The translations under genes were made by a program, and so were the position numbers. A stretch of DNA of 64,000 bases from NCBI GenBank assembly GCA_024276825.1, contig JAJRWI010000033.1:1-64000 (forward strand), written 5' to 3'. The notes under the pieces are model-generated. The model was not told where the DNA came from, did no database searches, and saw only the letters and a list, made by a program, of their open reading frames with translations. Origin of the DNA: an archaeon. GTDB taxonomy: Archaea; Asgardarchaeota; Thorarchaeia; Thorarchaeales; Thorarchaeaceae. Below are positions 44,879 to 59,320 of the stretch, piece by piece (positions within the stretch are counted from its first letter, which is position 1; each line of letters opens with the position of its first letter).

Positions 44879-44994
44879 GCCCGGATAGCCAAGCGGTTAC
44901 GGCGGCAGCCTGGAGACGCACACACATGGTGTGTCAGAACAGGCAGCTGCTCTCCCTTTGGGAGGCGCGAGTTCGATCCTCGCTCCGGGCGCCA
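44879..44994 (+). tRNA. tRNA-Ser(GGA) with 29-nt intron at 37/38 (44916-44944), encoded CCA
   Basis: Acceptor GCCCGGA/TCCGGGC, G73, anticodon stem GCAGC/GCTGC, CT-GGA-G|A loop, long variable arm CTCCC-TTT-GGGAG, T-loop GTTCGATC. Confidence 0.92.
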
Positions 44995-45301
44995 CGCCTC
45001 TTGCACCATATAATTAACTCATAAATTATTCGATATTTTGGGGGTACCAGTTTTATGTTTTAGAGTTTATAAGGGGGATGGTTTTAAAAATATAAATAAA
45101 ATTTGGGCAAAATTGGAACTCTGTAGATTTAATATTAAGCGTTATTATTACTTATTTTTCAAAATACAGGAGTTATAGAGTTTTTGCTTAATAAGTTTAA
45201 ATATTATCGCTAGTATAAAAATACGAGGTTAATAACGAAATGCGAAGAAACAAGGATGGTGAACTTAACAGCTAGAACAGGTCAGAAGTTTAAATATTCA
45301 G

Positions 45302-46951
45302 GTGAATAAAATGGCCAATACGATGGGCGTAGTCATAGCAGTGAAAGTACCAATAAAAACTGATAGAATGACTAAAAGAGCAAGACAACGATTACGACAA
45401 ATCGTTGGCCGAGACACCAGAACAATAAAAGCTCACTTGGGAGTAATTGAGCAGCATGAAAAGCAGCTAATTATTGGAAGGAGAAAAACAAGGATAAACG
45501 AGTCATTATTGCACGAGTTGACTTTGACAGCAATTTATGTGAAGAAAGGAGCATCCCAAAGGCTTTCAGTACTTCATGATTTGAAACAGAGATTCCAGAG
45601 AATTTCGCAAAATGAACTAGCAGAGTGTCGACGCACCGCGATAGCAATATGGGAATCATATCTTGCTTTAAGAGAGAAGAGAGCAAGTGTATCTAGACCT
45701 ACAAGCAAAAACAGATCAGGAAGAATTCCCAGATGGATTTTCACTCAAAGGTTCAATTTGATTGAGGACAATAACTCAGCAGCACGATGGTGGTTGGATA
45801 TTCGTGATTCTTTAGACTCACGAAGATTGAATCGGAGAACACATAGACGATTGAGGATACCACTATCAATCTCACCAATCCATCTTGAACAATTGTCAAA
45901 AGGAAAAATCAAGGCAATTCAGATATTCACAAAGGATGGAAAATGGTGGGTCACATTTTCAGTACAAATCGAATTTGAAAAACTTCCTGAAGAACTCAAG
46001 CCTCTAGCAGTATTGGGCATAGATCTAGGAATAAAGAAAACCATATGCAGTACACTCTTAACTGAGTCAAAAGTTTCTGAAACAAGATATTTCAAGCAAG
46101 ATGAAAAAATAGCCTTGATGGAAAAGTATGACCGACTGGTTTCTTCATTGCAAATTCAGAGAGATAATCATTCTAGTGAAGGTGTAATTCAACGATTGAA
46201 GGCAATTCGTCGAAAGAGACAGCGAGTTTCAATTGAGTATGACAGACTAATCGTTCATCAGCTTCTTGAGTATATTGCTGAGCTTGAAAAAAAATATACA
46301 TTGTACATAGCCATTGGGAAGGTATTTGGGATTCGTAATACTGCAAAACGTGGAAATAGGAGAGGTAAAAGATTCCGAGGAATGATTCATAGATGGACAT
46401 TTCGAAGAGTCACAAATATGATAAAGCATAGTTTAGCACAAAGAGGATGGGTTACAGAAGGCAAGGATTCCAGAATTATCCTTGTTCACGAGGCATGGAC
46501 AAGTATTATTTGTTGGAAATGTGGTCACAAGGGTCGTCGTCCAAAGCAGTCACTCTTTATATGCCCCCATTGTGGATTTAAAACAAATGCGGATCGAAAT
46601 GGCTCGTTAAATATTGCTCGGCGCTCCATTAGGCTCATTCGTCACTTGAATGAGAGTGGACTAGGGCGTTGGTCGTCTCCAGAGAGAGGGACAGCCCCGA
46701 AAGCCCAAGGGAAAATTTCTCGAGGGAAGTCTACACTCCCCAAGAGACCACCAATCTTGATGAAAGGGGAGTCCGCGGTTGTTCGCAGTGTCCAAATGGA
46801 CCTTTTCAGTTTTTGTGAGAAAACTGATTTGAGCGATCATGACCCTGCCGTGGAAAAAGCCGTGGAAAATCTTACTGCTGTTGAAAGTGATGTTTCAACA
46901 TCAAAGCAGAAGAAGGAAGCCAGGTCTATGGGAGGAATGCCATTCCAATGA
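45302..46951 (+). CDS. tnpB: TnpB/Cas12-like RNA-guided endonuclease with rearranged RuvC-II
   Basis: RuvC-I LGIDLG, zinc finger CWKC...CPHC, RuvC-III NADRNGSLNIA. Canonical RuvC-II Glu is absent (IAIGKV); alternative Glu in VHEAWTS. Confidence 0.9.
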   Translation: MNKMANTMGVVIAVKVPIKTDRMTKRARQRLRQIVGRDTRTIKAHLGVIEQHEKQLIIGRRKTRINESLLHELTLTAIYVKKGASQRLSVLHDLKQRFQRISQNELAECRRTAIAIWESYLALREKRASVSRPTSKNRSGRIPRWIFTQRFNLIEDNNSAARWWLDIRDSLDSRRLNRRTHRRLRIPLSISPIHLEQLSKGKIKAIQIFTKDGKWWVTFSVQIEFEKLPEELKPLAVLGIDLGIKKTICSTLLTESKVSETRYFKQDEKIALMEKYDRLVSSLQIQRDNHSSEGVIQRLKAIRRKRQRVSIEYDRLIVHQLLEYIAELEKKYTLYIAIGKVFGIRNTAKRGNRRGKRFRGMIHRWTFRRVTNMIKHSLAQRGWVTEGKDSRIILVHEAWTSIICWKCGHKGRRPKQSLFICPHCGFKTNADRNGSLNIARRSIRLIRHLNESGLGRWSSPERGTAPKAQGKISRGKSTLPKRPPILMKGESAVVRSVQMDLFSFCEKTDLSDHDPAVEKAVENLTAVESDVSTSKQKKEARSMGGMPFQ

Positions 46952-47070
46952 TAATAGACAAAGTCCTTGCTAACTCTATATTTGCAGTATGGAGAGTGGT
47001 GACACTTGGCAGGGAAAGGGTGGAACACGGAAGTCTGAAGTTGAGTTCACTCATCTAATTGACAGGTCAG
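46831..47070 (+). ncRNA. Putative cis omega-RNA overlapping the tnpB 3' end
   Basis: Position typical of TnpB omega-RNA. Stems CCTTGC/GCAGGG and AGTG-GTGA-CACT; GAGTTCAC end motif; homologous to the two stand-alone copies. Confidence 0.7.
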
Positions 47071-47308
47071 CTCGCTCCGGGCACATTTAGTGGTCGGAGT
47101 CTTTCTTTTTCTCAAGTCATCAAGCAAGGAGTTTAGTCATTAGTTCTGACATTCCATCCAAATTCGGTTTATATGTCATAGTGACTGAATGAATATACCA
47201 TAACATAGCAGATATATTATGTAACCAGAAGTACGAACTAATTGGTCTTTGATTTTTATGCAAGGACTAAGACATTGTGCATGATGATCCGTATGAGGAA
47301 TAAGACAG

Positions 47309-48238
47309 ATGATCCATACCACAATCCTGATGAGACGAAAGAGCAAGAGAACTGTTGCCACATCTAGGTACTGGACTGTAAAGATTCCACGGAAGGATGT
47401 GCTCGAGTACATAAAGGCTAGAGAGAAGCTTCAGGAGGTTTCAGATGGGCGAGAAGACATCTCACTCACCATTAATGGAAACAAGTATTTCAGTCGTATA
47501 TGTAATGAGAAATTATTGCTGATATTTATCACAGACATAGATGAGAAGGACCGTCTGATCAACCAGAAGATAGAAGCTGCTGCAAAGGGACTAGACGGCA
47601 CTCTGAAAGAGCGTAATATCGCCTATGTGAAGGAAAATTATGAGAAGATAGTCGCACCATTTGTGCATTCGAAATTGAAGATCGCACTTGTTGGAGAGGG
47701 AGGAGTGGGAAAGACAACAACATTGCACCTACTCATGGGTAAGAAACCACCAAGACAATATGTTCCTACTATCGCACTGAATCTGGAGGTCATGGAAACC
47801 ATATATTTTGCAAACTACTCATTGGTGATTTGGGATTTTGCAGGACAAGAGAGATTCCGTAAGCTGTGGAAGTTCTATTTCAAGGGAGCAGATATTGTAT
47901 TCCTGCTGACAGACTCTACACTACGAAATGTGCTACTGTCAAAGGATATGTTCACCATTATCAGGCGTGATGCGCCTAATGTCCCAATAATTGTGATTGC
48001 CAACAAACAGGATCTACCTAATGCACTTGATCCCTCGATAATCCGTAGAATCATAGGGGCTGAAACCTACCCGCTTGTCGCAATTGATCTTGCATATCGC
48101 GAGAAGATACTAAAGATACTTCTTGATGCCGCAGCAGAGCATGTGAAGATCACAGTGCCCGATGTACCTCCAGAGGAGTTACTGCGTTTTGTAGATGATG
48201 AGTATTTGTCGGAGGAATCGGAGGCTGCAGAGGCATGA
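47309..48238 (+). CDS. Arf/Rab-like small GTPase with N-terminal extension (longin/roadblock-like)
   Basis: GEGGVGKTT, YVPTI, WDFAGQERFRKLW and NKQDL motifs. Confidence 0.9.
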   Translation: MIHTTILMRRKSKRTVATSRYWTVKIPRKDVLEYIKAREKLQEVSDGREDISLTINGNKYFSRICNEKLLLIFITDIDEKDRLINQKIEAAAKGLDGTLKERNIAYVKENYEKIVAPFVHSKLKIALVGEGGVGKTTTLHLLMGKKPPRQYVPTIALNLEVMETIYFANYSLVIWDFAGQERFRKLWKFYFKGADIVFLLTDSTLRNVLLSKDMFTIIRRDAPNVPIIVIANKQDLPNALDPSIIRRIIGAETYPLVAIDLAYREKILKILLDAAAEHVKITVPDVPPEELLRFVDDEYLSEESEAAEA

Positions 48239-52180: not shown

Positions 52181-52526
52181 GCCCTGGTGCAGGGAGTAGC
52201 CCCAATTTTGTTCGGTCATCCCCCGTCACCAGGAGATGACTTTACGACATCAGACTATGCCCCCTACCCTCCACCTCGGGCCGACACTTCATTGGTGGAT
52301 TCTTGGGGTTGCTACCCGGTGATGGACCGTTTCAACCCGGCCAGACCACTACTCAGCAGCTTGAGTGCTGCATCATCGCTTGGCATGATCTGGAGGTGTC
52401 GTTTCTGTTTCCAGAGCAAGGCTCTCACCTTCCTGCTCTCGCAGGACCGGCGTCGGCATGTAGTTGGGAGCTTCCTCAGCTCCAGTCGAGTGACCGGTAC
52501 CGTCAGTCGTGCTCCTGCTCCAGGGC
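52181..52526 (-). ncRNA. rnpB: Archaeal RNase P RNA
   Basis: Minus strand shows the P1 helix GCCCTGGAGCAGG/CCTGCACCAGGGC, GAGGAAGCTCC, ACAGAAAC, GTTGAAACGG and GAACAAAATTGGGGCTAC conserved regions; lies downstream of cbf5. Confidence 0.88.
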
Positions 52527-59075: not shown

Positions 59076-59306
59076 GAGCACGACGACCCCGCCGTGGTAG
59101 GAAATGCAGAAACCCCCATTGTGTCTGAATATAATGCGACCGGGACAACATAGGGAGAAGGAGGCCAGGTCCCTGTTCATGAGTACAAAGCCCCTGCGAA
59201 CACCGATGTTTCGGTGGGTGGTGACATCTGCAGGGGAAGGGCTGAACGCATGAGTCCTGTTCAGACGAGTTCATCAAGTGACAAGTCTGAACAAGATTAG
59301 GTTGTC
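59076..59306 (+). ncRNA. Stand-alone TnpB omega-RNA-like structured element, copy B
   Basis: Homologous to copy A and to the tnpB tail (GACCC(T/C)GCCGTGG, GAAGGA(A/G)GCCAGGTC). Stems CACCGA/TCGGTG and GGTG-GTGA-CATC. Confidence 0.7.
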
Positions 59307-59320
59307 GGAAAAATAAGAAT

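Follow-up and report, generated by a model that had tools for sequence, protein, structure and literature searches.

The 64,000-nt stretch analysed here (the window; contig C24 of the Asgard archaeal genome G000, 2.94 Mb and 98% complete) carries a tnpB cassette next to a tRNA-Ser gene. We read positions 44991-47070 as a transposase-less element of about 2.1 kb that belongs to an Asgard TnpB family and has inserted at the tRNA-Ser gene, leaving a 12-nt direct repeat as its insertion footprint. We put the probability of this reading at roughly 0.55. The repeat is most likely a footprint that doubles as the seed of the TnpB guide; from the sequence we infer both the activity of the nuclease and its targeting.

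The sequence-only reading of this stretch, which preceded our analysis, had pointed to a tRNA-Ser 3'-end repeat on either side of the cassette. We found the exact 12-mer, CTCGCTCCGGGC, at both of those places and nowhere else in the genome: at 44979-44990, inside the tRNA gene, and at 47071-47082, directly after GACAGGTCAG. The expectation from shuffled sequence, with up to one mismatch allowed, is 0.10 matches in the window. The heptamer TTCGATC, already seen to precede the repeat in the tRNA, proved to be the T loop. Could the repeat be a coincidence? Its small size speaks for chance and nothing else does. Against it, the 2.94-Mb genome has just the two copies, which bracket a single cassette, and one of these falls exactly on the guide position. 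We regard chance as effectively refuted. The features concerned are these:

44879-44995, forward strand: tRNA-Ser(GGA), matched by Rfam RF00005 at 43 bits (44879-44991), with G73-CCA encoded.
44979-44990, forward strand: direct repeat copy 1, consisting of the T-stem 3' strand CTCGC and the acceptor 3' strand TCCGGGC, after the T loop TTCGATC.
44991-45192, forward strand: putative left arm, AT-rich, beginning with GCCA (the G73-CCA of the tRNA); its left boundary is taken from the repeat. The left arms of the G013 copies likewise stretch upstream, beyond the promoter box, by over 100 nt.
45193-45205 and 45286-45298 (span 45193-45298), forward strand: two identical promoter-like boxes, AAGTTTAAATATT, flanking an 80-nt module.
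45311-46951, forward strand: tnpB, 546 aa; PF07282, 4.9e-12; PDB 9nzp, 2.9e-11.
46915-47070, forward strand: predicted omega-RNA scaffold and right end, overlapping the 3' end of tnpB, containing GAGTTCACTCA and terminating in GACAGGTCAG.
47071-47090, forward strand: predicted guide; its first 12 nt (47071-47082) are repeat copy 2, followed by ACATTTAG; conservation stops at 47070.

The boundary between scaffold and guide had been considered impossible to fix from sequence alone, with 47050 and 47070 as the candidates. Comparison within the family places it. We aligned the 3' regions of 24 full-length tnpB homologues (in alignments of 11 and 13) and 12 of the at least 40 miniature copies present in genome G013; this and the other family surveys were made by alignment and visual inspection. 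In both sets, similarity ended abruptly after AAGAAAyAGGTyAK. Hence, the boundary lies at 47070|47071, within one base, and repeat copy 2 starts at the first predicted guide base. The alignments agree with the earlier observation that the repeat immediately follows the last conserved scaffold block, and they confirm that the predicted omega-RNA reads into the repeat, so that the predicted guide starts with 12 nt of tRNA-Ser. The accompanying suggestion, that TnpB is thereby guided to the tRNA or attachment (att) site, would amount to homing, to which the geometry alone points. Because copy 2 begins exactly at the comparative right end and the 12-mer is unique to two sites, we favor an insertion footprint as the origin of the repeat.

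A different guide position has been suggested for related TnpBs: Altae-Tran et al. 2023 (PMC10691335) left the guide position open but proposed, as a possible guide, the variable stretch before the GTTCACTCA motif. We rejected this candidate: the stretch measures 10-15 nt and forms a loop that a covarying stem closes. Since the variable flank starts after GGTyAK and the stretch before GTTCACTCA is such a stem-closed loop, the guide position is fixed after GGTyAK, in a family whose guide the literature had left open. The motif itself, at 47047-47055 in the window, was found in all homologues. In the RNAalifold consensus, GTTCACTC pairs with the upstream GGGTGGAAC, and 22 of 38 pairs carry compensatory changes. 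The fold of the single window sequence was not significant (z = -1.08). By its covariation, we take the scaffold to be a real structured RNA.

Flanking repeats also occur elsewhere in the family. The miniature element of G013 is about 600 nt long, comprises the left end and the last ~440 nt of tnpB with the scaffold, and is present in at least 40 copies (e.g., L122-L135), compared with just about five left-end regions of full copies. Direct repeats of 6-11 nt flank the miniature copies. In at least eight of them the repeat has the form TC-NN-GA, with one and the same NN at both ends (AA in five copies, TT in two, TG in one); two copies carry repeats of 11 and 15 nt. An 8.2-kb full copy in the same genome, which holds tnpB and a divergent open reading frame (ORF) of ~1410 aa and whose left end matches that of the miniature copies, splits a GNAT reading frame. 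Both of its junctions share TATCTGGATTGC, a 12-nt identity of which 8-9 nt are target. The sequence-only reading had worked from the premise that such elements make no target duplication. This is true of classical IS200/IS605 elements, but it fails for the present TnpB family, because the miniature and 8.2-kb copies carry flanking repeats. We conclude that the 12-nt repeat of the window is of the same kind and that it belongs to a coherent family-level phenomenon, not to chance.

If the repeat marks an insertion into a tRNA gene, do relatives sit at tRNA genes as well? We surveyed 26 full-length loci, some of which are orthologous, so that not all are independent. tRNA genes or fragments lay at or near the ends of 11 of them; the lack of any tRNA association, which had been named in advance as a refutation, is therefore not what the survey returned. 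Rfam detected 11 tRNAs in ~130 kb of homologous loci and 1 in the 64 kb of the window. In L069, from another genus, a tRNA-Val is split after its T-stem 3' strand with a 5-nt repeat, CCGGC, and the acceptor GGGGCGG of the upstream 5' fragment pairs with the right-end flank (CCGGC CCGCCCT A TCA). This element bears an intact spare tRNA-Val with a recoded acceptor (GGGCCGC/GCGGCCC), so the L069 guide is mismatched to the spare at positions 6, 9, and 12. At L108/L160, a 43-nt tRNA-Arg 3' half, running from the first anticodon base, directly follows the right end, and an intact intron-bearing tRNA-Arg stands at the left end. An antisense tRNA-Gly(UCC) abuts the right end in L080, L081, and L099 (three genera), starting at its CCA, and L105 has an antisense T-arm fragment at the guide position.

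L078 and L109 share a guide, CTAAACCTTGCGCC, that is antisense to the tRNA-Leu(UAG) anticodon arm. It matches the tRNA-Leu of G008 exactly and has 1 and 3 mismatches to the tRNA-Leu genes adjoining its carriers; G048 contains an exact copy of the 14-mer, counted here as a sequence match. Across these loci, the association with tRNA is systematic, recurring in at least six different tRNA contexts, with some loci orthologous. As a separate observation, the tRNA-Leu of G009 (L078:1240-1295) has, past its variable region, an additional insert of ~35 nt that is lacking in G010, G008, and G019, and the gene falls below the Rfam gathering score.

Together, these observations can be arranged into a mechanism. 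Members of the family would insert into tRNA genes or next to them, with the T loop, the anticodon loop, and the 3' end as entry points, and would leave short flanking direct repeats. Here the insertion site would be the T-loop/T-stem border of tRNA-Ser(GGA), and the 12-nt footprint could be a target duplication or else an identity of the att-core kind. The tRNA-Ser is intact because the DNA to the right of copy 1 supplies G73-CCA. Because a TnpB takes as its guide the sequence that immediately follows the right end on the 3' side, the guide here starts with T-stem and acceptor sequence of the tRNA and continues with ACATTTAG. The vacant site, as reconstructed, would consist of the T loop plus CTCGCTCCGGGCACATTTAG, with CTCGCTCCGGGCACAT as the empty-site junction. 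Once vacated, this site would be fully matched by the omega-RNA, which could provide homing, retention, or drive; the resident tRNA-Ser would be matched by the guide over 12 nt only. If the element were lost precisely, the remaining tRNA-Ser would lack G73-CCA.

A bolder proposal, which we advance only tentatively, is that the family is an RNA-guided drive that occurs in nature and acts on essential tRNA genes. Having inserted in a tRNA gene, the element would restore it or bring a spare that is recoded or has an intron, its guide would be aimed at the uninterrupted allele, element-free cells or sister lineages would be cut, and loss of the element would break the tRNA. In such a drive, the resident tRNA-Ser would be protected by guide mismatches that begin at position 13, and its altered T loop (TTCGATC versus TTCGAAT) might add to the shielding. 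If the nuclease is active on tRNA targets, this would be a natural system of the type "cut an essential gene, supply or repair a resistant copy." It would also offer a selective reason for the recoded stems and introns of archaeal tRNA genes, and a parallel to the tRNA-directed guides of Cas12k. As it stands, a whole TnpB family in the archaea closest to eukaryotes is tied to tRNA genes: its guides consist of tRNA sequence, flanking repeats accompany its copies, and at least one relative splits a tRNA and has a guide-resistant spare of its own.

Several observations on the junctions and on mobilizing enzymes weigh against an insertion at the tRNA-Ser gene. Repeat copy 2 continues with ACAT, but a native tRNA-Ser end would give GCCA, which is encoded in every tRNA-Ser orthologue examined. 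Because plain target duplication and att exchange in the native gene both predict GCCA after copy 2, neither is sufficient. A later change of guide positions 13-16, an element-borne core, or a partly element-borne tRNA must be assumed; the first of these would also abolish a 16-nt self-match. Hence, the earlier proposal survives in part: the cassette looks like a minimal tRNA-integrated element, but its repeat, followed by ACAT and not GCCA, is not the displaced native tRNA end. The left arm (44991-45192) had no homologue and no match elsewhere in the genome, so far as searched, and the repeat by itself places the left boundary at 44991. The sequences 5' of the repeats gave no consensus for a target-adjacent motif (TAM); base -1 was T in 10/10 G013 and L069 junctions, whereas the window and the tRNA-Leu targets have C there. 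Scans of the collection with the right flank of the window returned nothing, and scans with the T-arm/acceptor 24-mer returned just unrelated bacterial tRNAs, so neither an empty site nor a near-identical strain was found. Finally, repeat length varies in the family, from about 5 to 12 nt, which leaves either a staggered cut or a homology core as the mechanism.

The same holds for the enzymes. Y1 TnpA (PF01797) was not found in G000, G002, or G003, nor serine recombinase (PF00239) in G000 or G013. Phage-type (tyrosine) integrase (PF00589) had no match in G000, a 98% complete genome, and matched in 14 of 14 control genomes. No aCas1 was found in the cassette, elsewhere in the genome, or next to the homologous loci examined, though a very divergent aCas1 could escape; PF01867 matches in relatives lay on other contigs or, if on the same contig, far from tnpB. 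In addition, no transposase or resolvase was found in the whole genome, and no Y1 TnpA, serine recombinase, or integrase was found beside the homologous loci examined. The sole Y1 TnpA copy of G013 is broken (L112). As the sequence-only reading had stated, the 2.1-kb interior has no integrase or TnpA; tnpB is its single long ORF. The window element is probably immobile in its genome today. In three relatives or more, the ~1410-aa ORF noted above is transcribed divergently to tnpB: G013 C20 (L113:289-3999 plus L161:1-621), G020 C91 (L114/L160), and G003 C21 (L080). It had no Pfam match and so cannot be named a transposase; we consider it a candidate partner or mobilizing protein of the TnpB family.

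When an integrase uses a tRNA att site, or a casposon inserts at the 3' end of a tRNA gene, the tRNA stays intact and a direct repeat extends from one of its loops in the 3' direction. Perhaps the window holds a decayed integrase island whose att site is the tRNA T loop, and the right end of a TnpB insertion sequence that has nothing to do with it touches attR by chance? Like the repeats of classical tRNA att sites, this one does extend from the T loop in the direction of the tRNA 3' end, and no recombinase is left in the cassette. However, right end and repeat adjoin with single-base precision, and the right-end/tRNA junction recurs in at least five independent family members at other tRNAs. 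Moreover, the genome has no phage-type integrase, and attR should carry GCCA. The window differs from both kinds of tRNA insertion in that neither integrase nor casposase was found and in that its distal repeat is without G73-CCA and coincides with the RNA-guide position. We consider such an island improbable.

The tRNA gene itself raises another question: does it belong to the host? From its anticodon, read as GGA, it is a tRNA-Ser; its variable arm is long, and an insert of ~32 nt (an intron) lies at the anticodon loop. Rfam detects it; an ARAGORN run missed it and called no tRNA. Elsewhere in the genome the tRNA-Ser(GGA) sequence had no DNA match, so the gene is single-copy. It adjoins an asparaginase gene, as do its orthologues in many related genomes. 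Its orientation relative to that gene in G000, G002, G003, G011, and G012 is opposite to that in G001, G005, G008, G015, G019, G021, and G023; the two orientations across genera suggest repeated inversion at tRNA-Ser.

The tRNA-Ser could be wholly or partly a spare carried in by the element. Recombination with a split host 5' fragment would have collapsed the left junction, and the host 3' remnant would lie at the right end. L069 would be the uncollapsed form, with the host 5' fragment, 62 nt, the spare tRNA-Val, and 186 nt to the promoter box. The spare tRNA of L069 ends 318 nt from the tnpB ATG and the tRNA-Ser of the window 320 nt; the intervening sequences are unrelated. The G000 T arm (GCGAG / TTCGATC / CTCGC) differs from that of G001, G002, G003, and G011 (ATGAG / TTCGAAT / CTCAT) by two compensated stem pairs plus loop changes, which fits an imported 3' part. 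However, the right-end remnant has the derived CTCGC and not the CTCAT of four of the five other orthologues; the fifth, in G012, already has CTCGC, with one stem position different from G000. The remnant is also without GCCA, no tRNA 5' fragment lies upstream, and the tRNA is in its ancestral place beside the asparaginase gene. We therefore hold an element-borne tRNA-Ser to be unlikely.

Could the 12-nt match instead be maintained by selection? TnpB and its omega-RNA might use this seed-length match to bind the tRNA-Ser gene or the left junction without cutting, for regulation, guarding, or junction recognition, in the manner of TldR partial-match guides or Cas autoregulation. The two copies are identical at 12 of 12 positions despite the derived T stem of this lineage. 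A possible relic of an element lies at the same site in G002 (AGTGAACTCAA ... TCCGGGACA); if it is one, the insertion would be old and the copies co-evolved. There is also a second, internal pair: in all 10 two-box elements, the 12-15 nt after GGTCAG are identical to a box ~95 nt upstream. On the other hand, in L069 and in L078/L109 the guide mismatches the tRNAs of its own carriers, the reverse of what maintained matching would give. The evidence for a relic in G002 is weak, and MAFFT favors a competing alignment. TnpB also appears to keep its catalytic Asp residues. We give selection for binding without cutting a low probability and return to the insertion footprint as the preferred origin of the repeat.

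The internal pair deserves a description of its own. The 80-nt module between the two boxes of the window ends in AACAGGTCAG, identical to the right-end terminus, and the second box directly follows it. This resembles a unit of "scaffold end + 13 nt" that matches the element's own upstream promoter. Paired boxes ~93-97 nt apart were also seen in L069, L071, L077, L079, L080, L098, L108, and L109. They are identical over 12-15 nt within each element and differ between elements, and they co-vary in 10 homologous elements. Autoregulation and an internal copy of the end junction are both possible explanations.

Is the window TnpB likely to be a nuclease? Its match to the Pfam zinc-ribbon TNB domain (PF07282, 4.9e-12) is above the family cut-off, and residues 205-445 align with the solved TnpB 9nzp (2.9e-11). 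The RuvC-I Asp (in GIDLG) and the RuvC-III Asp (in NADRN) align with those of 9nzp, and the zinc ribbon is present. At the column of the canonical RuvC-II Glu of 9nzp, TnpB has IRN: the Glu is replaced and the site rearranged. The Glu may have been relocated to HEAWTS. By this alignment, TnpB appears to retain its catalytic Asp residues. It probably cuts.

TnpB is the ancestor of Cas12 and is usually described as helping IS200/IS605 and IS607 elements, which insert at short motifs, to home. IS605-type TnpB (ISDra2) homes by a guide taken from the DNA 3' of the right end. As in these elements, the guide of the window TnpB would be the DNA directly 3' of the right end. They differ in having a TnpA and repeats of 0-2 nt, whereas for the window family we found no TnpA, repeats of about 5-12 nt, tRNA sites, and, in some members, spare tRNAs. 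IS607 elements have a serine TnpA and a 2-nt core, which the co-varying NN in TC-NN-GA of the present family resembles. In the IS607 element CboIStron, the ends share a short core repeat, and the vacated donor joint is the predicted TnpB target (bioRxiv 10.1101/2023.11.20.567912).

The closest kin of the window TnpB are the aCas1-linked TnpBs of Asgard archaea (Cas1H-Asgard-1/-2), described as "often flanked with repeats" (PMC10691335). They too have a non-canonical RuvC site, a downstream RNA region with GTTCACTCA, and flanking repeats; we tie the window TnpB to them because the GTTCACTCA motif and the rearranged catalytic site are common to both. They differ in that aCas1 lies next to their tnpB, whereas none lies next to the window cassette or the homologous loci examined. 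The word tRNA is absent from the main text of PMC10691335, and our literature search found no publication that links this TnpB family to tRNA genes.

The closest published functional analogue is the Cas12k transposon. In type V-K CRISPR-associated transposons (CAST), a 17-nt guide after a ~13-nt repeat end matches a tRNA gene, and diverse tRNAs are used (Hsieh and Peters, bioRxiv 10.1101/2021.02.06.429022). Like the window, these elements combine an effector of the TnpB lineage with a short guide matching a tRNA and lie downstream of that tRNA. The likeness is functional only: CAST elements have Tn7 machinery, a CRISPR array, an internal spacer, and a non-cutting Cas12k, whereas the window interior is a single ORF and its guide is the flank.

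Further features lie downstream in the window. A gene for an Arf/Ras-like GTPase (47309-48238) stands just downstream of the TnpB cassette, in keeping with an Asgard archaeon, and an archaeal RNase P RNA is at 52185-52522. An orphan omega-RNA scaffold without a nuclease gene occupies 59150-59310, and four more are on contigs C7, C4, C67, and C28. We considered TGAACAAGATT, near 59288, as a guide matching a nearby gene start and rejected it: the sequence is conserved in all orphan scaffolds and is therefore part of the scaffold.

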